The notes under the pieces: generated by a model
Told to the model about the DNA's origin: nothing
Seen by the model: the letters and a program-made list of their open reading frames with translations, nothing else
Databases searched by the model: none
NCBI GenBank assembly: GCA_965203035.1
Contig: OZ241858.1
Coordinates: 2,201,437 to 2,265,436, forward strand
DNA: 64,000 nucleotides
Direction of reading: 5' to 3'
From: Candidatus Spongiisocius sp.
Lineage (GTDB): Bacteria; Actinomycetota; Acidimicrobiia; Spongiisociales; Spongiisociaceae
Made by a program: the position numbers and the translations under genes
Part shown: piece by piece, positions 21,029 to 35,873 of the stretch
How the letters are laid out: each line of letters begins with the position of its first letter
Numbering within the stretch: position 1 is the first letter of the stretch

Positions 21029-21783
21029 GGCGCCGGGGCGGATCGGAAGGCCTCGTATCCTTCCTCCTCGAGCCGGCGGGCCAGCTCGGCGCCACCGGAT
21101 CTCACGATCCGGCCATCCACCAGTACGTGGACGTGGTCGGGCGTGATGTAGTCGAGCAGCCGCTGGTAATGGGTGATCACCACGAACCCGCGCTCGGCCC
21201 CGGCCAGGCGGTTCACCCCTTCGGCCACCACCTGCAGCGCGTCGATGTCGAGCCCCGAGTCCGTCTCGTCCATGATGGCCAGTTCCGGCTCGAGCACCGC
21301 CATCTGCAGGACCTCGTTGCGCTTGCGCTCGCCTCCGGAGAACCCCTGGTTCACGTAGCGGTCGGCGAAGGATGCGTCCATTCCGAGCGACTCCATCGCG
21401 TCCATGACCCGCAACCGCAACTCCAGCACGGTGTAATCGACACCGGTCCGGTTGCTGAGCGCGGTGCGCAGGAAGTTGACGACCGATACGCCCGGTATCT
21501 CCTCCGGATACTGGAAGGCGAGGAACATCCCCATGTTGGCCCGGGTGGGCGGGTCGGCATCGGTGATGTCCTCCCCCTTGAAAGAGACGGTCCCGGACGT
21601 GACCTCGTAACCCGGATGTCCCATCAGGACCTTGGCCAGGGTGGACTTCCCGGAGCCGTTGGGCCCCATGATGGCGTGGACCTCGCCCCGGCAGGTCGCC
21701 AGGTCGACGCCTTGCAGGATGGGTTGCCCATCGACAGACGCATGCAGGCCTTCAACGGCCAGCAGGGGGCCAGGGTCGGTCAA
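21025..21783 (-). CDS. sufC: Fe-S cluster assembly ATPase SufC
   Basis: Walker A (GPNGSGKST), signature (FSGGERKRNEVLQMAVLEP), Walker B (IMDETDSGLD). The start is probably TTG at 21783; the ORF-track extension is rejected. Confidence 0.85.
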   Translation of the reverse strand: MTDPGPLLAVEGLHASVDGQPILQGVDLATCRGEVHAIMGPNGSGKSTLAKVLMGHPGYEVTSGTVSFKGEDITDADPPTRANMGMFLAFQYPEEIPGVSVVNFLRTALSNRTGVDYTVLELRLRVMDAMESLGMDASFADRYVNQGFSGGERKRNEVLQMAVLEPELAIMDETDSGLDIDALQVVAEGVNRLAGAERGFVVITHYQRLLDYITPDHVHVLVDGRIVRSGGAELARRLEEEGYEAFRSAPAP

Positions 21784-22094
21784 GATCGGATCTCCTGGAG
21801 AGCGAAGCGAGTGCGCGCCCCAGGCTACCCGTCCCGCTGCGGTGTCGGTAAACCAATGGACGGTTACCACCGCCGTCCACCTGAAGGGTGCCGGGAAATG
21901 TCGTCCTGCCGACGCCCAAGACTTGATTTCGGTCAGCGGAAGCCCGGCCGGATCAAGCCGTCCCCATCGACGCCCCCTCCCGGTACTGTCGACCCAAGAT
22001 CACGACTGCGAGCCGCAGCCCGGGAACCGATCGGCGGTCCCGGTACGTCATAGGGAGGAATTGGCTGATCAGATGTCCCTATGGAAGGAGCCGA

Positions 22095-24232
22095 GGATGA
22101 GAAGGCACGCATCTTGGTTGGTGGGCTTGGCCCTCATTGCCGGGGCTTGCGCTCCCGACCCGGCCACGGCGCCCCCGCCGGACGCATCGATCGTAGGCAC
22201 CACCGAACATCGGGAGCCGACGGTGGCGACGGCCGGCGGTTCTATAGCCTCGACCACCGTTCTCGACAACGCGGTGGGCCTGTTCGCCTCGGCACTGGTG
22301 GAGTTCGACTCCTGCGATGCGTTCCTCGGCCACGTCAAGGCGGAAGCAATGGAGCGCGTCGGACCCTACGGCCTGCCCGGTGCGGGCTATTTCGGCCCGG
22401 AGCTCTGGAACGGCGAGATTCTGGAAGAGGCCATGGTCGAGGAGGCGGCCGCCGACGCGTCTGACACCGCGACGGCAGCATCCTCCCCGGCACCGCAGGC
22501 CGGAGTGGATTACTCGACGACCAACGTCCAGGAGATCGGCGTCGACGAACCCGACATCGTCAAGACCGACGGAAATCGGATCCTCGTGCTGGCTCAGGGC
22601 ATCCTGTACTACGTCGACGTGTCGTCAGGTCGCCCTGACCTCCTGGGATGGTTGGATCTCTGGTCCCGGGATTCCCGGGAGGGTGAGGACGCGGAGTTCT
22701 GGCGTCACGAGATGTTCCTCGGCGCCGGCAGCGCGTTGCTGATTGCCGGCGGGCGCGGGGCGGACGGAGATCTCACCCAGGTGGTCCAGGTCGATCTGTC
22801 CGACCCCGAGAACCTGGCCGTGACGGCCACTCTCACGGTGGAGGGCAGGTACGTGTCGGCCCGCCTGGTGGGGGAACGGGCCAGCCTGGTCATCTCCTCC
22901 CGGCCGCACGAGCGGCTCCCGTGGGTATATCCCGGATCGAGGTCGGCCGAGCCGAGGGCCGAGCTGAGCAACCGGATGACCATCGAGGAGTCGACTCTGG
23001 AGGACTGGGCCCCGGGCTATGTCCGCGAGGGCACCGGCGGCGTCTCCGAAGGCCTGTTCCTCGACTGCGCGTCGGCATTCGCCCCCAAGGAGTTCTCCGG
23101 GTTCGACTTCCTGTCCGTGCTGAGCCTGGACATCGCCGGCGGTGTCGAGATCGACGCGGTATCCACCGTGATGTCAGGAGGCGACACGATCTACGCCTCG
23201 TCAACCGACCTCTACGTGGCCACCGAGCGCTGGGTTGATTGGTCCGTCCTCGATGAGGAGGAGGCGATCAGCGAAGCCGAGACCATCCGCACCTATATCC
23301 ATCAATTCGACATCGCCGGGGCGGACGGGGCCGAGTATCTCGCGAGCGGATCGGTGAACGGATACCTCCTGAACCAGTTCGCCATGTCAGAGCACGACGG
23401 CCATCTGCGGGTGGCGTCCACCAACGAGCCGCCCTGGGGTTGGTGGTTCGACGAGAACCGACCTTCCGTGAGCCGGGTTGACGTCCTGGCGAGGGATGGC
23501 CGCCAACTCCGGGTCGTCGGGTCAGTGGGCGGCCTCGGTGAGGGCGAGCGGATCTTCGCCGTCCGGTTCATCGGCGAGGTCGGGTACGTGGTCACCTTCC
23601 GCCAGACCGATCCGCTGTACACCATCGACCTGTCCGACCCAGAAGACCCCCGGGTGGTGGGCGAGCTCAAGATCCTCGGCTACTCCGCCTACCTGCACCC
23701 GATCGGAGAGGGGCTCCTGCTGGGAATCGGTCAGGACGCTGATGAGCAGGGCAGGACGCGCGGCGCCCAGGTCTCGGTGTTCGACGTGTCCGATCTGGCC
23801 AACCCGATTCGTATCCATCAGTTCACCCTCGAGGACTCGTTCTCCGAGGTTGAGTGGGATCACCGAGCTTTCCTGTACTGGGCCCCGGAGGAGATAGCCG
23901 TCATGCCGGTCAGCTGGTGGGAGCAGGATGTCCAGTCGGGCTCCTGGGATGGTCGCGCGGGCGCATTCGTCCTGTCGGTCGGCGCCGGAGGCATCCGGCA
24001 GCGGGCGACTATAGAGCACGAGATCAAGAACGCGCGCGGCATCTCCGAGGAGGAACTCCGCTACATGTACTGGTGGCTCCTGCCGATCCGCCGCTCCCTG
24101 GTGGTGGGTGACACCCTCTTTACCCTCTCGGAAGGCGGCCTGCTGGGATCGGACCTGGGGACATTCGAGCCAACCTCCTGGATCGGGTTTCAGATCCCGG
24201 ACTACGGGGTGCCGGAACCCGTCATCTACTGA
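22095..24232 (+). CDS. Secreted lipoprotein with a beta-propeller domain (Beta_propel-like family). Function unknown.
   Basis: Lipobox (LALIAGAC) at the second in-frame ATG, preceded by AAGGAG. Repeated propeller-like blocks. No catalytic motifs recognised. Confidence 0.65.
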
Positions 24233-24340: not shown

Positions 24341-24784
24341 ATGCCCTCCGATCCGGTCATCGCACTAGGGGCGGCGCTGATCCTGCTGGTCCTGGCCGCC
24401 GTCGGGGTGGCCGTCCGGATGGGACGCAGAAGCAACCGGGCAGATCGGCAACCCGTCTACGTCATCAACGACGCCATCGACCACGCGGTGGAGCATCTCG
24501 ACCCGGAGGTACTGGACCGGATCCGCCGCGCCGGCGCGCAACGCATCATCGAATGGTCGGTGCACTACCTTCAGGGTCTGGCGGTTCCTGCTCGCCGACG
24601 GAGGGGCTTGCGGGTGGTGGCCGGGGGAGAGGGCAACGCCATCGAGTACATCCGCGGCGAGCTGGCAGAAAGAGGATACGATTACACCCCGTCCGACATT
24701 GCCGCGGTACTGGCCGGAGAGGCGACGTACCTGGCGGGCATAGGAGCAATGGGAGAGCGGGTCGAGGAAGGGAACCCTGTATGA
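24341..24784 (+). CDS. Hypothetical membrane-anchored protein (single N-terminal TM)
   Basis: N-terminal TM helix followed by a soluble domain. Stop overlaps the next start (ATGA). Confidence 0.5.
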   Translation: MPSDPVIALGAALILLVLAAVGVAVRMGRRSNRADRQPVYVINDAIDHAVEHLDPEVLDRIRRAGAQRIIEWSVHYLQGLAVPARRRRGLRVVAGGEGNAIEYIRGELAERGYDYTPSDIAAVLAGEATYLAGIGAMGERVEEGNPV

Positions 24785-25071
24785 GGGCACGCTGCGGTCG
24801 CTGCGGCACCGGTTTCGAGGTAATGGCGCCGGGCCGCTACGCCTGTCCGGCCTGCGGTGTCACCAACGAGGTGCGCGGCCCCGCCGGCGGTCCGCCCGGC
24901 GCCGGACCTCGGGCACAGGACATGGCGCCCCCACCCCCTCCGCCCGAGGCCCCCTCCCGGAGAACCCGATGCCGTGCCGCCCAGTGTGGTTTCAGCTTCA
25001 TCGTCGGCGACGTGAACGTGGCGCCCTGCCCGATGTGCGGGACCGAGGTGCGCGTCGGGAGAGGGGTCTGA
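24781..25071 (+). CDS. Small double zinc-ribbon protein (two CxxC...CPxC units separated by a Pro-rich linker)
   Basis: RCGRCGTGF...YACPACG and RCRAAQCGF...PCPMCGT. Translationally coupled to its neighbours. Confidence 0.55.
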   Translation: MRARCGRCGTGFEVMAPGRYACPACGVTNEVRGPAGGPPGAGPRAQDMAPPPPPPEAPSRRTRCRAAQCGFSFIVGDVNVAPCPMCGTEVRVGRGV

Positions 25072-25290
25072 GTGGCCACCGGGACATCCTCGCGCCTATC
25101 CAGATTCGAGAAGAGCCGCTTTATCGGCGCCAGGGACACGATGATCGTCTACGACTGCGACGATGCCGGCCAGTTCGCCCGGCTCGAGGCCCGGCTCGGG
25201 GACGACAACCTGCTGGGTCGCAACCTGATCCAGAGCTTCGCCCCCGACACGCTGGCCGAGGCCCGCAACCGGGGATTTCGTAGTTTGTAG
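25072..25290 (+). CDS. Hypothetical small protein (72 aa, GTG start). Its C-terminal RSL* is encoded by the heptamer array.
   Basis: The ORF directly follows the upstream stop. No recognisable motifs. Confidence 0.3.
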   Translation: MATGTSSRLSRFEKSRFIGARDTMIVYDCDDAGQFARLEARLGDDNLLGRNLIQSFAPDTLAEARNRGFRSL

Positions 25291-25530: not shown

Positions 25531-26934
25531 TTGGCGAACCGGAGAGTCGCATCTGTGTATGACGTAATCGTGATCGGCGGTGGCCCGGGCGGCTACGGCG
25601 CCGCCCTGTTCGCGCACAACTTCGGACTATCTGTGGCTCTGGTCGAGAAGGACGAGGTGGGCGGCACCTGCCTGCTGCGCGGATGCATACCGGCCAAGAG
25701 TTGGCTCCAATCGGCCGAGGTGTATTCGACGGTTCGCTCCGCGGGGGAGTTCGGAGTGGTGATCGGGGAGGCATCCTTCGACTGGCCGAAGGCGCTGGCG
25801 CGCAAGGACCGCATCGTGAACGGCCTGGTACGGGGCCTGTCCGGCCTGCTGAGGATGCGCAAGGTCGAGGTCGTCAAGGGCGCGGGCCGGATGGCCGGAC
25901 CGGGAAGGGTCGAGGTCGACCAGGACGGATCAACCCGTGTTCTGGAAGGCCGGAGCGTGATACTCGCCACCGGATCGGCTCCGATCGAGCTACCGGCCTT
26001 TCCCTACGACGGAGTGAGGATCGTCAGCTCCGATCATGCACTCGACTGGACCGAGCGGCCCGACCGGGTGGGAATAATCGGGGGCGGGATCGTGGGATGC
26101 GAGTTCGCCAGCCTGCTGGCCGACGTCGGGAGCCAGGTGGTGGTCTTCGAGATGCTGGACCAGATCATCCCCGGCTTCGAGCCGGCCGCCGCGCGCGAGC
26201 TCCAGAAGCAACTGAGGCGCAAGAAGGTGCGGTTCTTCCTCGAGGCGGCGGCGAGGGTCGACAACTCCGGCGACCATCCCGTTCTCCTGGGCGGGACCGG
26301 CGCCGCCGAGCAGGGAATCGAGGTTGACGCAGTGCTGGTGGCGGTGGGGCGACGTCCGGTCACCGAGAACCTGGGGCTGGATACGGTGCGGGCCGAGACC
26401 GACCGGGGCTTCGTGATTGCCGATCGGGAAACCATGCAGACCGCCGAGCCGGGTGTGTTCGCGGTCGGCGACATCGTGGCCGGCACTCCCGGTCTTGCCC
26501 ATGGCGCCTTCGCCGAGGCCATCGCCGCCGTCACCTTCATAGCCACCGGGAGACCCCGTCCGGTCGACTACCAGGCCCTCCCGAGTGTCGTCTACACCCA
26601 CCCTGAGGTGGCGTCCGTGGGACTCACCTCGGTCGATGCGGCCGCCGGGGGAATCGAGGTCGAGGAGCACGACCACTCCTTCGTAGGCGTGGGCCGGGCC
26701 CGCATCATCGGGAAGAACCAGGGATTCGTGAAGATCCTGAACGAGGTCGGTGGGCCTATCGTGGGCGCCACCGTGGTGGGACCGCAGGCCGGCGAGATGA
26801 TCCACGAGTTGATGTACGCGGTGGGCTGGGAGGCCCTTCCGGAGGAGATGGCGGCGTTCATACATGCCCATCCCACCCTGAGCGAGGCGATAGGAGAGAC
26901 CCTGCTGTCCTCGTCCGGTCTTTCCCTTCACTGA
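25531..26934 (+). CDS. lpd: Dihydrolipoyl dehydrogenase (E3)
   Basis: FAD motif (GGGPGGYGAA), redox-active disulfide (GGTCLLRGCIPAK), NAD motif. Confidence 0.9.
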   Translation: MANRRVASVYDVIVIGGGPGGYGAALFAHNFGLSVALVEKDEVGGTCLLRGCIPAKSWLQSAEVYSTVRSAGEFGVVIGEASFDWPKALARKDRIVNGLVRGLSGLLRMRKVEVVKGAGRMAGPGRVEVDQDGSTRVLEGRSVILATGSAPIELPAFPYDGVRIVSSDHALDWTERPDRVGIIGGGIVGCEFASLLADVGSQVVVFEMLDQIIPGFEPAAARELQKQLRRKKVRFFLEAAARVDNSGDHPVLLGGTGAAEQGIEVDAVLVAVGRRPVTENLGLDTVRAETDRGFVIADRETMQTAEPGVFAVGDIVAGTPGLAHGAFAEAIAAVTFIATGRPRPVDYQALPSVVYTHPEVASVGLTSVDAAAGGIEVEEHDHSFVGVGRARIIGKNQGFVKILNEVGGPIVGATVVGPQAGEMIHELMYAVGWEALPEEMAAFIHAHPTLSEAIGETLLSSSGLSLH

Positions 26935-26975: not shown

Positions 26976-28286
26976 ATGCCAACCACAGTGTCCATGCCGC
27001 AGTTGGGCGAGACGGTGACGGAGGGCACCGTGCTCCGGTGGATGAAGCAGGTGGGTGACTCCATCGCTCGCGACGAGGCCATCGTCGAGATCTCCACGGA
27101 CAAGGTCGACACGGAAGTTCCGTCGCCGGTGGCCGGTGTGGTCAGCGAGATACTTGTCGGAGAGGGTGACACGATCGAGGTTGGCACGGCCATGGTGGTG
27201 ATCGCCTCGCCGGACGAAGACTCGACGGCCGCACCTTCCGTGGGGGTCGAGACGCCCGACTCGGAGGAGGGGGGTGTGCCCCGGTCGGCGGCCGCTCCGG
27301 TTGCCGCTCCGGCCCTTACACCTGCGCGTTCCGACCGGCCCGGGCCCCGCAAGTTCCTGTCGCCGGTGGTTCGCCGCCTGGCCCGGGAGCACGACATCGA
27401 CCCGAGCGTCATCGACGGCACCGGGCGGGACGGCCGGGTGACGCGCAACGATGTGCTCGCCTACATCGAGAGCATGAAGGCGAAGCCCGAACCGGCGCCC
27501 GCGCCACCGCCCGATCCGTCCCCGTCCCCGGCCCCGGCCCCGGCCCCGGCTGATCCTGTCCCCCCGACCGATGAGCCCGCGAAGCTCAGCCGGCTGCGGG
27601 TGCGAATCGCCGACAACATGGTCGCTTCCCTGCGAACCGCCGCCCACGTGTGGACCTCGATGGAGGTCGACTACGAGCAGGTGGAGAGGGTGCGCCGGGC
27701 CCATCGCGAGTCCTTCCGCCGGCAGGAAGGGTTCTCGCTCACCTACCTGCCGTTCATCGCCCGCGCCACGCTGGACGCCCTCCGGGCCTTTCCGGTGGTC
27801 AACAGCTCTTTCGACCAGCAGGGGCGCACCGCCACCTTCCACCAGGATGTCGACCTCGGCATCGCCGTCGACCTCAACCAGGATGGCCTGATGGTGGTCA
27901 CCATCCGGAAGGCGGATGACTACTCGGTGAGAGCCCTCGCCAGAAAGGTTCGCGACCTGGCGGTACGCGCACGCAGCGGTCGGGTGGGCCCCGGTGACGT
28001 ATCGGGTAGCACCTTCACGATCACCAACCCCGGACCCTACGGATCGTTCATGTCGGTCCCGATCATCAACGTTCCCAATGTGGCCATCCTCTCGACCGAC
28101 GGGATCGCCAAACGCCCCAAGGTGATAACCACGCCCGATGGAGCGGACGCCATCGCCATCAGGCACCTGGGTTACCTCGGCCTGTCGTGGGATCATCGAG
28201 CCTTCGACGGATCCGTCGCGGTCCTGTTCCTGCGCCGGATAAAGGAAAACCTGGAGAACTGGGATTGGGAACAGCAACTGATCTAG
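26976..28286 (+). CDS. Dihydrolipoamide acyltransferase E2 component (lipoyl domain, E3-binding domain, catalytic domain)
   Basis: Lipoyl-lysine motif (EISTDKVDTEV), Pro/Ala-rich linkers, and a catalytic C-terminus (DHRAFDG). Confidence 0.9.
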   Translation: MPTTVSMPQLGETVTEGTVLRWMKQVGDSIARDEAIVEISTDKVDTEVPSPVAGVVSEILVGEGDTIEVGTAMVVIASPDEDSTAAPSVGVETPDSEEGGVPRSAAAPVAAPALTPARSDRPGPRKFLSPVVRRLAREHDIDPSVIDGTGRDGRVTRNDVLAYIESMKAKPEPAPAPPPDPSPSPAPAPAPADPVPPTDEPAKLSRLRVRIADNMVASLRTAAHVWTSMEVDYEQVERVRRAHRESFRRQEGFSLTYLPFIARATLDALRAFPVVNSSFDQQGRTATFHQDVDLGIAVDLNQDGLMVVTIRKADDYSVRALARKVRDLAVRARSGRVGPGDVSGSTFTITNPGPYGSFMSVPIINVPNVAILSTDGIAKRPKVITTPDGADAIAIRHLGYLGLSWDHRAFDGSVAVLFLRRIKENLENWDWEQQLI

Positions 28287-30043
28287 AACCGGTCCTGCTC
28301 ACGGCCGAACCTGACCGGCGGTTCCGGGTCGCGGCCGACCCGGCCCGGCTGCGTACCAGGTGGTTGGGCCGTCTCGCCTACGGCGAGGCCTGGGATCTGC
28401 AACGCGCCTTCTGGGAAGGTCGGCAGACCGGCCGGGCCACGTCCGATTACCTGCTCCTCCAAGAACATCCCCATGTCTATACGGTGGGGCGCAACGGCGA
28501 CGGCTCCCACCTCCTGATTCCCGAAGAGGGCTTGGCCGGCATAGGCGCGCGGCGTTTCGACATCGATCGCGGTGGCGACATCACCTACCACGGCCCCGGA
28601 CAGCTGGTCGGCTATCCCATCGTGGCCCTGGCCGACCTGCGGAAGATCGTCCCCTACGTCCGGGCCGTGGAGGAGGTTCTGATCCGTACGCTCTCCGACT
28701 TCGGAGTGGAGGCTTGGCGCGATACCGGGTACACGGGAGTCTGGACCGACCGGGGGAAGATCGCAGCGATCGGCGTACGCGTGGCGCGGGGCGTCACTAT
28801 GCATGGCTTCGCCCTGAACGTCGATCCCGATATGGGCTATTTCGATCATATGAACCCCTGCGGCATCACCGACCGGCCCGTCACCTCCCTGGTGGAGTTG
28901 CTGGGATGGAAGGTCTCCATCGAGGAGGCGGTGGACGTACTGGTCCCTCGCTTCGTGGAGGTGTTCGGATACCAGGAGAACGACCTCCAGCTGGGCGCCT
29001 TCACGCGGGGACAGGGACGGCCCCGGGCATTCGAGGTGGATCGGCTGCTCGCCGAGGGAACCTTCGCTCCGAAGGGTCGGGCCGCCGTGCCGGTGACGAT
29101 CGGCAAGCGGCTGGAGGGCGAGCCGCCCCGGGCGCCCTGGATGAAGGTGACCGCCCGCCTGGGACCCGAATACCGGCAGCTCGGGAGGCTGATGCGGGAG
29201 CTCGACCTCCACACCGTGTGCGAGGAAGCAGGCTGCCCGAACATCTACGAGTGCTGGAGCGAGGGCGCCGCCACCATCATGATCCTCGGTGGCGTCTGCA
29301 CCCGGGCATGCGGTTTCTGCGACGTCACGACGGGCCGCCCCCAGGGACTCGACCTGAACGAGCCGGCCCGGGTGGCCGAGGCGATAGCTGCCATGGGACT
29401 GCGCCACGCCGTGATCACGTCGGTCAACCGCGATGACCTGCCCGACGGCGGCTCGACCGTCTTCGCCAGGACGGTGCAGGAGGTGCGGAGTCGGGTACCG
29501 GAGTGCGACGTCGAGGTGCTGATTCCCGACTTCAAGGGGGTCAGGGGGGACCTGGAGCGGGTCATGGATGCGGGGCCGGCGGTCCTGAACCACAACACCG
29601 AGACCGTGCTCCGGTTGCAGCGTGAGGTGCGAACCGCCGCCTCGTACGGACGCTCACTCGCCCTCCTGGCCCGTGCGAAGTGGCACCGGCCGGACGGGGT
29701 GGTGAAGTCGGGCTTGATCGTGGGCATGGGCGAGACCCGTGAGGAGGTCCTGGGCGCCATAGCCGACCTCCGGGCGGTCGGTGTGGATGTGGTCACGGTA
29801 GGCCAGTACCTGCGGCCCACGGTCAGGCACCGCCCCGTCCACCGCTACGTGCACCCCGACGAGTTCGACGAGTACGCCGACTTCGGCCGGCGGATCGGTC
29901 TGGCGCACATCGAGTCAGGCCCGCTGGTGCGGTCGTCGTACCACGCCCGGGACTCCCTGGACGCAGCCGCCACGTCCGAGGGTCGGCAACCATCGGCGGT
30001 CGCCGGCCCTGATCCGTCCCGGTTGCCGGCAACACTCACGTAG
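28265..30043 (+). CDS. Apparent fusion of octanoyltransferase LipB (N-terminal) and lipoyl synthase LipA (C-terminal) in one uninterrupted reading frame
   Basis: LipB block (LQEHPHVYTVGRNG...HGPGQLVGYPIV...NPCGI). LipA radical-SAM block (CEEAGCPNIYECW...CTRACGFCDV). No stop codon separates them. The start is uncertain (TTG at 28265 or 28364). Confidence 0.75.
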   Translation: MGTATDLEPVLLTAEPDRRFRVAADPARLRTRWLGRLAYGEAWDLQRAFWEGRQTGRATSDYLLLQEHPHVYTVGRNGDGSHLLIPEEGLAGIGARRFDIDRGGDITYHGPGQLVGYPIVALADLRKIVPYVRAVEEVLIRTLSDFGVEAWRDTGYTGVWTDRGKIAAIGVRVARGVTMHGFALNVDPDMGYFDHMNPCGITDRPVTSLVELLGWKVSIEEAVDVLVPRFVEVFGYQENDLQLGAFTRGQGRPRAFEVDRLLAEGTFAPKGRAAVPVTIGKRLEGEPPRAPWMKVTARLGPEYRQLGRLMRELDLHTVCEEAGCPNIYECWSEGAATIMILGGVCTRACGFCDVTTGRPQGLDLNEPARVAEAIAAMGLRHAVITSVNRDDLPDGGSTVFARTVQEVRSRVPECDVEVLIPDFKGVRGDLERVMDAGPAVLNHNTETVLRLQREVRTAASYGRSLALLARAKWHRPDGVVKSGLIVGMGETREEVLGAIADLRAVGVDVVTVGQYLRPTVRHRPVHRYVHPDEFDEYADFGRRIGLAHIESGPLVRSSYHARDSLDAAATSEGRQPSAVAGPDPSRLPATLT

Positions 30044-34263: not shown

Positions 34264-34373
34264 TCTAATCGTGGTCACGGGGGACCCGCAATAGCGAATC
34301 GCTCACGGCGTGTGGCGTCCTCACCCACCCGCTAGCCTCGTAGCGCTCCCGGTGGCAAGGCGCAGGTCGCCGG

Positions 34374-35873
34374 GTGATGGGAGGACTCGTGGGCAGGCCG
34401 GCTGCCTGGGTATTGGCCGTTGTCCTTGTCGCGGGCCTGGTGGTCACGGAGCCGCCCGGCGCCGTTCAAGCCCAGGATGCGGAGCTCTGCGACGCCTCCG
34501 GCGCCCGCCTTTTCGCCGACGTCGCTGCCGGCGACTACGCCGCCGAGTACATCCTCTGCATGAGGGTTCTCAGCCTCACCCAAGGGAACTCCAGCGGGGG
34601 ATACGGCCCGGACGACACCTTGAACCGGGGGCAGATGGCGTCGTTCATCGTGCGCCTCTGGCGGGACATCCTCGGCGGGGAGTGCCCGACCGGAGACACG
34701 CCCTTCACGGATGTGCCGAGCACAGGCACCCACGCCGCCAATATCGCGTGCCTGTACAACCTCGGGATCACCAAGGGCGTCTCCGACACCGAGTTCGCTT
34801 CGCACAACCCGGTGAAGACCTCCCAGGTGTCCAGGTTCTTCCTAAGGATCTACGAGCGACACGGTGGTAAGTGTCCTGATCGGGCGTCGGAACTCGACGA
34901 GGCGGTCGAGTGCCTGGAATCCCTCCATGTCATCCCCACAGCCGGCGAGGGCCGGAGCAGCCGGGCCATGATCAGATCGCAGATGGCCGTCTACATGATC
35001 GGCCTGTGGCACAACCTCGAGTACGGTCCTCCGCCCGTTCCGCCCCTCCTCGGCACCCCGACCGAAGTCCGTGGCGCTGGCCTCGCGCCGGCCCTGCTCT
35101 CGCAGATCACGGTCGCTCCGGAGTGGATCACCGGCTACAGCCGCAGCCTCTTCGACCATTGGAAGGACCTGGACGGGGACGGTTGCGACACCCGCCGCGA
35201 GGTGCTGATCAGGGACTCGAGAATCGATCCGGCGATGGACAGTGGCCGCACCTGCTGGGTGACCTCGGGTCTCTGGTACTCGTACTACGACGGCATCTGG
35301 CTCACGGATCCCTCCGAACTCGACATCGACCATCTGGTTCCGCTGGCGGAGGCCTGGGCGTCGGGCGCCCATCTCTGGAACCCTGACCGGCGCGAACAAT
35401 TCGCCAATGACGAGAACGCGCTCGTAGCGGTCACGGCCGGGTCCAACCGGAGCAAGGGCGCCCGCGATCCGGCCGAGTGGATGCCGGCCGACGACGCCGG
35501 CTACTGCCCGTACGCAGCGGCATGGGTGGCCGTCAAGGCCCGCTACGACCTCACTATGGATCGGACGGAGTACGACTTCCTCGCGGACGTGCTCGACGGG
35601 ACCTGTGCCACCACGACCGTGAACCTGGACACACCGATCCTGGCGTTCCCCGTGCTGGCGATTCCGGAACTGCCGGCCGTCGCGCCCACGACCACCACCA
35701 CGTCAGCCCAGGGGAGGCCTCCGGACCCGGGCGACAGCAAGAACTGCTCCGATTTCTCCACCCACCGCGATGCGCAGGAATGGTTCGATCGCTACTTCCC
35801 CTACTACGGCGACGTGGCCAGGCTGGACCGGGACGGCGACGGTGTGGCCTGCGAGTCCCTCCCGCGGGGCTGA
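34374..35873 (+). CDS. Secreted multidomain protein: signal peptide, three SLH-like repeats, DUF1524 HNH-like nuclease domain, C-terminal Excalibur calcium-binding domain
   Basis: SLH-like F(A/T)DV motifs. DUF1524 block (DIDHLVPLAEAW...NRSKGARDP). Excalibur block (NCSDF...LDRDGDGVACE). Confidence 0.7.
   Translation: MMGGLVGRPAAWVLAVVLVAGLVVTEPPGAVQAQDAELCDASGARLFADVAAGDYAAEYILCMRVLSLTQGNSSGGYGPDDTLNRGQMASFIVRLWRDILGGECPTGDTPFTDVPSTGTHAANIACLYNLGITKGVSDTEFASHNPVKTSQVSRFFLRIYERHGGKCPDRASELDEAVECLESLHVIPTAGEGRSSRAMIRSQMAVYMIGLWHNLEYGPPPVPPLLGTPTEVRGAGLAPALLSQITVAPEWITGYSRSLFDHWKDLDGDGCDTRREVLIRDSRIDPAMDSGRTCWVTSGLWYSYYDGIWLTDPSELDIDHLVPLAEAWASGAHLWNPDRREQFANDENALVAVTAGSNRSKGARDPAEWMPADDAGYCPYAAAWVAVKARYDLTMDRTEYDFLADVLDGTCATTTVNLDTPILAFPVLAIPELPAVAPTTTTTSAQGRPPDPGDSKNCSDFSTHRDAQEWFDRYFPYYGDVARLDRDGDGVACESLPRG

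Follow-up and report, generated by a model that had tools for sequence, protein, structure and literature searches.

The enzymes LipB (octanoyltransferase) and LipA (lipoyl synthase) are encoded by one continuous gene, lipBA, on the forward strand of the 64,000-nucleotide stretch of Candidatus Spongiisocius sp. DNA analysed here (contig OZ241858.1; hereafter the window). We consider it very probable that lipBA is a genuine, vertically inherited gene fusion whose product is a single bifunctional enzyme of 65 kDa that acts in de novo protein lipoylation. The open reading frame (ORF) extends from 28187 to 30043, giving 618 amino acids if read from its first GTG, and the LipB and LipA blocks follow one another in it without an intervening stop. 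On this 618-residue reading, Pfam places LplA-B_cat at residues 65–256, LIAS_N at 314–350 and Radical_SAM at 366–526, a LipB-then-LipA domain order within one uninterrupted frame. An earlier note, made from the sequence alone, had described a single LipB–LipA ORF at 28265–30043 with a product of 60–65 kDa; the open frame and the Pfam and NCBIfam assignments agree with this description, and the computed mass is 65.0 kDa.

In this single sequence of 67% GC, a stop-free junction of 54 codons is not much beyond what chance would give (P = 0.16–0.58, from the non-coding frames of the same ORF). The case for fusion therefore rests on comparative data from 67 independent genomes. The same probability can be cited in favor of an assembly or sequencing artefact, in which lipB and lipA would in reality be neighboring genes with a stop or frameshift between them that was lost in the window. 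Adjacent lipB and lipA genes in the same direction are the norm in Actinomycetes, and a single insertion or deletion can alter the gene calls of this region, as illustrated by P0141, a call of 1041 amino acids in which the upstream E2 acyltransferase is joined to LipB–LipA.

Conservation of the fused gene

In a search of 5.8 billion proteins, both Pfam domains were present together in at least 120 clusters at 90% identity, whose proteins are 522–608 amino acids long and share 67–92% identity with that of the window. Exact look-ups of the window protein itself, read as 592 or as 618 residues, returned no record. With one genome taken for each GTDB species, a scan yielded 80 loci, and both halves could be located in 78 of them; these loci were picked by similarity to the query, and several of the fused ones come from complete chromosomes. 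Loci were judged fused or split from the stops in their junction translations. The junction is free of stops in 67 of the 78 loci, every one of them Acidimicrobiia-type, and the fused set includes Candidatus (Ca.) Spongiisociaceae (80–82% identity), Ca. Actinomarina/OCS155, Ca. Microthrix, Acidimicrobiales and Ca. Poriferisocius. One to three junction stops are present in the other 11, all from Actinomycetes: Mycobacterium, Dietzia, Rhodococcus, Nocardioides, Micromonospora, Dactylosporangium, Microtetraspora and three metagenome-assembled genomes (MAGs) of Actinomycetes or Actinomycetota. This is consistent with the earlier statement that lipB and lipA are separate genes in Mycobacterium. Among the sampled genomes the fusion separates Acidimicrobiia-type genomes from Actinomycetes, and it is a trait common to all Acidimicrobiia-type genomes sampled. 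A neighbor-joining tree built from the concatenated halves groups the fused sequences in one clade, and a long branch sets this clade apart from the split sequences.

These comparisons bear directly on the artefact. The same open frame recurs in the protein clusters described above and in 67 independent species-level genomes, of which several are complete chromosomes, and the junction is conserved as protein with a low ratio of non-synonymous to synonymous change (see below). We give the artefact next to no chance, as for practical purposes this conservation refutes it. The earlier note had suggested comparing orthologous loci in related genomes, and the 67 stop-free loci point to a genuine fusion rather than to a missed stop or frameshift.

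The taxonomic titles of some of these records are at odds with their gene content. Several of the MAG records L009, L024, L027, L045, L062 and L068 carry an Acidimicrobiia-type fused lipBA under the title Gammaproteobacteria, Gemmatimonadales or Bordetella parapertussis, and some split-type loci are titled Mycobacterium or Micromonospora MAGs. It looks as though the submitter taxonomy of these contigs is unreliable, or the bins are contaminated.

The junction between the two halves

About 37 residues of the junction have no counterpart in stand-alone LipB or LipA, and 54 residues separate the conserved cores; the linker of about 30 residues given in the earlier note was roughly right. Within the clade of the window the junction is strikingly conserved, with the consensus QLGAFTRGQGRPRxFEVDRLLAxGTFSP. 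The ratio of non-synonymous to synonymous change (dN/dS) was calculated by the Nei–Gojobori method for the window against six relatives, at synonymous sites that are near saturation (proportion of synonymous differences, pS, of 0.5–0.77). It is 0.11–0.22 for the junction, 0.07–0.19 for the LipB half and 0.07–0.27 for the LipA half. Since the junction value is low and comparable to those of both enzyme halves, the junction is selected as protein, and purifying selection acts on it as strongly as on the LipB and LipA halves.

An AlphaFold2 run on a 121-sequence alignment yields one confident two-domain model of the full chain, with a mean predicted local distance difference test score (pLDDT) of 82.4 and a predicted template modeling score (pTM) of 0.86. 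The high pTM suggests a defined arrangement of the two domains. In the junction the pLDDT is 62–76, with a short strand at residues 238–243 and a helix over EVDRLLA (257–263). A fold search of solved structures returned no chain that spans both halves (query-normalized TM score of at most 0.46).

Across Acidimicrobiia the junction ranges from 28 to 123 amino acids, and its sequence also differs greatly between sub-lineages. In Acidimicrobiales it follows a different yet recognizably related pattern, DLSxFSRGxGPG ... VRLLGRLAEAGV ... RKPE, whose second part is similar to the N-terminal tail that LipA has in actinomycetes, where the enzyme stands alone. This resemblance fits an origin by read-through, in which the junction would combine the C-terminal tail of LipB, the former spacer and the N-terminal tail of LipA. 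The lipB stop codon was probably lost in an ancestor of the class Acidimicrobiia, and the junction then became a conserved, partly structured protein segment. A peripheral-subunit-binding (E3_binding) helix was considered for VRLLGRLAEAGV in the Acidimicrobiales-type junction and rejected, as hmmscan of four junction sequences gave no Pfam match at E ≤ 10; the junction of the window has no match at this threshold either.

It is conceivable that the ORF is continuous and two proteins are nevertheless made from it, either because translation starts inside the junction, for instance at the FEVD GTG, or because the linker is cut by proteases. In-frame GTG codons are present at 29036, 29087 and 29093 and an ATG at 29141, and with its only moderate pLDDT the junction could be accessible to proteases. 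However, none of these four codons has a properly spaced Shine-Dalgarno motif, and the methionine encoded at 29141 (M293) lies in a PWMK motif that aligns with PWIK of the solved stand-alone M. tuberculosis LipA, an internal position of that enzyme. The valine codon of FEVD, which the earlier note had put forward as an internal start (FEVDRLL), is GTG, GTC or GTA in relatives, with GTC or GTA in many of them, and is not kept as a start codon; with no Shine-Dalgarno motif upstream and a junction that evolves as protein, we reject it. If separate products were all that counted, there would also be no reason for an open frame and purifying selection on the junction in 67 genomes. Two separate products are in our judgment improbable.

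Both halves are predicted to be intact enzymes

The LipB half scores above the cut-offs of both NCBIfam equivalog models for this enzyme (NF010925, 200.6 bits against 155; TIGR00214, 149.9 bits against 83.55). Its AlphaFold2 model superimposes on 2QHS with a TM score of 0.94 and a root-mean-square deviation of 1.5 Å. The invariant cysteine and lysine form a dyad that we take to correspond to C176/K142 of the M. tuberculosis enzyme (1W66), with the motifs PCG and K-[IV]-A-A-I-G. By these comparisons, the LipB half is a predicted octanoyltransferase with its catalytic motifs intact.

The LipA half likewise exceeds the cut-offs of the equivalog TIGR00510 (346.1 bits against 310.25) and of the NCBIfam model NF004019 (394 bits against 203), and it matches PDB entry 5EXI, M. 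tuberculosis LipA, by sequence with E = 6e-91. The model of this half gives TM scores of 0.88–0.90 to 5EXK, 5EXJ and 4U0P, and of 0.85–0.90 to the lipoyl synthases of M. tuberculosis, human and cyanobacteria. The CxxxCxxC cluster named in the earlier note is present as the radical-SAM (S-adenosylmethionine) motif, and all motifs of a lipoyl synthase are intact, as expected of the predicted enzyme.

The closest comparison is with the separate enzymes of M. tuberculosis and other Actinomycetes (Rv2217/Rv2218; 1W66, 5EXI/5EXJ/5EXK), whose genes stand in the same order after an E2 (dlaT-like) gene. Actinomycetes LipB is 41–50% and LipA 49–54% identical to the respective window halves; the folds match (TM scores of 0.89, to 1W66, and 0.88), as do the catalytic motifs. 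Whereas the Actinomycetes genes are separated by a stop codon and a short spacer, in the window the stop is gone and a conserved junction of 37 residues joins the C-terminus of LipB to the N-terminal tail of LipA.

NCBI, PGAP and IMG name the fused proteins only ‘lipoyl synthase’ or ‘lipoic acid synthetase’, which would fit a protein in which one half survives only as a degenerate or regulatory remnant and the whole is effectively a lipoyl synthase only, or a LipB only. The scores above equivalog cut-offs in both halves, the invariance of every catalytic residue and the equally low dN/dS of the two halves argue against this, and neither a second lipB nor a second lipA is present within the window. 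We see a very slim chance for a remnant half.

Proposed function

LipB takes octanoate from octanoyl acyl carrier protein (octanoyl-ACP), holds it as a thioester on its cysteine and attaches it to the lipoyl-lysine of an E2 or GcvH domain. The same protein-bound octanoyl group is next the substrate of LipA, which converts it to the dithiolane precursor with two radicals derived from SAM and with sulfur drawn from its own auxiliary cluster. In the fused protein, the N-terminal half would load octanoate from octanoyl-ACP onto Cys199 and from there onto the lipoyl-lysine in lipoyl domains of E2 or GcvH, and the C-terminal half, a predicted radical-SAM enzyme with a second, sacrificial [4Fe-4S] cluster, would insert sulfur at C6 and C8 of the protein-bound octanoyl chain. 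The upstream gene encodes a lipoyl-bearing E2, the predicted substrate of the enzyme. We infer that a single polypeptide performs both activities and that the hand-off is faster through their proximity. Fusion would make synthesis of the two enzymes obligatorily 1:1 and may keep the second active site near the product of the first. Channeling of the octanoyl-domain intermediate is a reasonable inference from this arrangement, and the overlap between the E2 gene and lipBA could couple translation of the enzyme to that of its substrate gene.

A more active role for the junction can also be considered. The conserved sequence could act as a structured element that fixes both active sites around one lipoyl-domain docking surface, allowing a processive hand-off in which a lipoyl domain receives first its octanoyl group and then its sulfur while it stays bound, or it could recruit a partner such as ACP or an Fe-S cluster donor. 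This idea is speculative, and we think it rather unlikely. If it were true, natural fusions would imply a LipB–LipA complex also where the enzymes are separate, and they would provide a ready-made sample for solving the structure of that complex.

Returning to the single bifunctional enzyme, several points weigh against it. The interdomain arrangement is read from a global pTM score, and the variable length and sequence of the junction indicate that a precise interdomain geometry is not obviously required. The inference of a single fusion event is drawn from 78 loci chosen by their similarity to the query. Post-translational cleavage or low-level internal initiation would be compatible with the sequence, and full-text literature searches found no proteomics or enzyme-activity report for any LipB–LipA fusion.

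Fusions of LipB and LipA in other phyla

The LipB–LipA architecture is not new: it is recurrent and already catalogued in databases. Among the best 150 representatives of clusters at 50% identity, there are 52 LipB–LipA fusions, seven LipA–LipB fusions in the reverse order and one LplA–LipA fusion (P0295). A second search, seeded with a distant fusion, led to cultured Bacillota and to MAGs. In Desulfoscipio gibsoniae DSM 7213 the protein (AGL03434.1) bears the name “lipoate-protein ligase B/lipoate synthase”, and its UniProt entry (R4KL99) has the label “Multifunctional fusion protein”. The same architecture occurs in Desulfotruncus arcticus (A0A1I2UVA1) and Desulfotomaculum copahuensis, and in MAGs of Planctomycetota, Elusimicrobia, NPL-UPA2 and Binatia. 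The earlier note had implied that such a fusion is rare, which does not hold, given that the genes are fused in all Acidimicrobiia-type loci examined as well as in Bacillota, Planctomycetota and other phyla.

The catalogued fusions of other phyla share with the window protein the LipB-to-LipA order and the Pfam architecture, in a single chain of about 490–550 amino acids. Identity to the window protein is 36–49% in the LipB half and 41–53% in the LipA half. The junctions of these fusions show no sequence relationship to that of the window and differ in length, so that common descent of the junction is not seen, and their halves are no closer to those of the window than the halves of split Actinomycetes genes are. 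For these two reasons the fusions appear to be independent, and the LipB–LipA fusion has probably arisen several times.

Two related arrangements differ more clearly. In the reverse-order fusions (P0188, P0193, P0206, P0209, P0211, P0244 and P0249) the same two enzymes are found in one polypeptide with Radical_SAM first and LplA-B_cat second, and hardly any linker is present, the apparent gap between the matched halves being −5 to 10 residues. The P0188 locus (L081 4001–5539, on a 7.85 Mb contig), the only reverse-order locus inspected, adjoins a TetR-family gene and has no lpd or E2 nearby. In the LplA–LipA proteins (NCBIfam NF053790, ‘bifunctional lipoate--protein ligase/lipoyl synthase’; for example P0295), a lipoyl/octanoyl-attaching enzyme of the same superfamily stands N-terminal to LipA. 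This N-terminal part is an ATP-dependent LplA with a C-terminal accessory domain, where the window protein has LipB instead. Membership of the window protein in NF053790 was rejected: its score of 348.6 bits falls short of the cut-off of 800, and the match is confined to profile positions 335–605, the LipA part.

Full-text literature searches found no publication that describes or characterizes a natural LipB–LipA fusion. In a 2023 PLoS Biology survey of lipoate assembly (PMC10332631), the passages containing ‘fusion’ or ‘fused’ concern LplA/LplB, and none of those passages concerns LipB–LipA.

Significance and annotation

We regard lipBA as a real yet fairly ordinary gene fusion, and the current understanding of lipoate assembly is not overturned by it. 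That LipB and LipA have been joined repeatedly, and in both orders, is classic ‘Rosetta stone’ evidence that the two enzymes work in physical proximity. A natural single-chain LipB–LipA could be convenient for structural work on the octanoyl-domain hand-off, and with their conserved junction these proteins offer a natural system in which to study that step.

The fusion also matters for annotation. PGAP and IMG name these proteins ‘lipoyl synthase’ only. An eggNOG-style line for the Desulfoscipio gibsoniae fusion (P0332 / Desgi_4179) gives both COG0321 and COG0320, but only the KEGG Orthology (KO) term K03644, lipA. Because such annotations and KO terms give lipA only, lipB may be scored as missing and lipoate auxotrophy inferred wrongly. 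The pathway reconstructions affected would be those of Acidimicrobiia, including sponge symbionts such as Ca. Spongiisociaceae, the group closest to the window.

Start codon and neighborhood of lipBA

The coordinates of lipBA, its motifs and the two genes before it are given in Table 1.

Table 1 Features of the lpd–E2–lipBA region (positions in the window).
Feature	Position	Strand	Remarks
lipBA fusion gene	28265..30043	+	592 codons + TAG; 65.0 kDa; likely start TTG 28265; alternative GTG 28187
GGAG, Shine-Dalgarno-like	28253..28256	+	8 nt upstream of TTG 28265, within E2 coding region; from sequence reading and start-region comparison with relatives
LipB octanoyltransferase domain (predicted)	28349..28972	+	residues 29–236; NCBIfam scores, invariant K165/C199, fold match
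LipB catalytic Lys165 (GKIAAIG)	28757–28759	+	invariant in 121 homologues
LipB catalytic Cys199 (NPCG)	28859–28861	+	invariant in 121 homologues
Fusion-specific junction QENDLQLGAFTRGQGRPRAFEVDRLLAEGTFAPKGRA	28973..29083	+	residues 237–273 of the 592-residue protein
LipA lipoyl synthase part (predicted)	29084..30043	+	residues 274–592; NCBIfam scores, invariant motifs, structure matches
Auxiliary-cluster motif CX4CX5C, CEEAGCPNIYEC	29219–29254	+	Cys invariant in 121 homologues
Radical-SAM motif CX3CX2C, CTRACGFC	29297–29320	+	Cys invariant in 121 homologues
RSSY motif (C-terminal serine ligand)	29930–29941	+	invariant in 121 homologues
lipBA stop codon TAG	30041–30043	+	
lpd (dihydrolipoamide dehydrogenase, E3)	25531..26934	+	Pfam Pyr_redox_2, Pyr_redox_dim; first gene of the lpd–E2–lipBA block
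Lipoyl-bearing E2 acyltransferase	26976..28286	+	Pfam Biotin_lipoyl + E3_binding + 2-oxoacid_dh; stop TAG 28284–28286

From a reading of the sequence, TTG 28265 is the nearest candidate start upstream of the first LipB beta strand. No ATG, GTG or TTG is found from 28268 up to that strand, so the start does not lie further downstream. From this TTG, lipBA overlaps the E2 gene by 22 nucleotides and covers the E2 stop. Gene callers differ on the start, with products of 581–608 amino acids. Other candidate starts, at −57 and −31/−33 codons, sit in conserved motifs of E2 (LSWDHR and WDW, in the other frame; window 28187–28286), and being inside these motifs their conservation is not independent evidence for a start site.

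The lipBA frame is open for about 270 nucleotides inside the E2 gene, from 28010 onward, and for this reason a single insertion or deletion can create a triple fusion of E2, LipB and LipA. The single gene call of P0141 (from ENA) corresponds to window positions of about 28010–28290. Comparison of the protein sequences suggests that the join arose by a change of frame near the E2 C-terminus (..AVLF|PATDTRQPGELGLATT..), and this triple fusion is probably an assembly error.

As the earlier note had observed, the fusion directly follows lpd and the lipoyl-E2 gene, and the lpd–E2–lipBA block is kept in most related loci. The end of the E2 gene meets or overlaps the start of lipBA in nearly all Acidimicrobiia-type loci. 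The genes that come after lipBA, on its downstream side, encode acetyl-CoA synthetase and an enoyl-ACP reductase. The fused gene also occurs, at 92% identity, in an independent MAG of sponge type (GCA_009839965.1), where its surroundings are those of the window: a beta-propeller protein, lpd, E2, lipBA, acs, fabI and a DsbD-like gene.

Upstream of the block in the window lies a gene for a large Beta_propel (PF09826) protein at 21611–24232 (+; E = 3e-129), followed by three small ORFs at about 24341–25290, one of which has paired CxxC motifs and is zinc-ribbon-like; this arrangement is also kept in the related MAG locus L082. Further downstream, at 34344–35873 (+), is a protein that combines S-layer homology, GmrSD_C restriction-endonuclease C-terminal and Excalibur calcium-binding domains, an odd mix for a nuclease-type domain, and it too is kept in L082.

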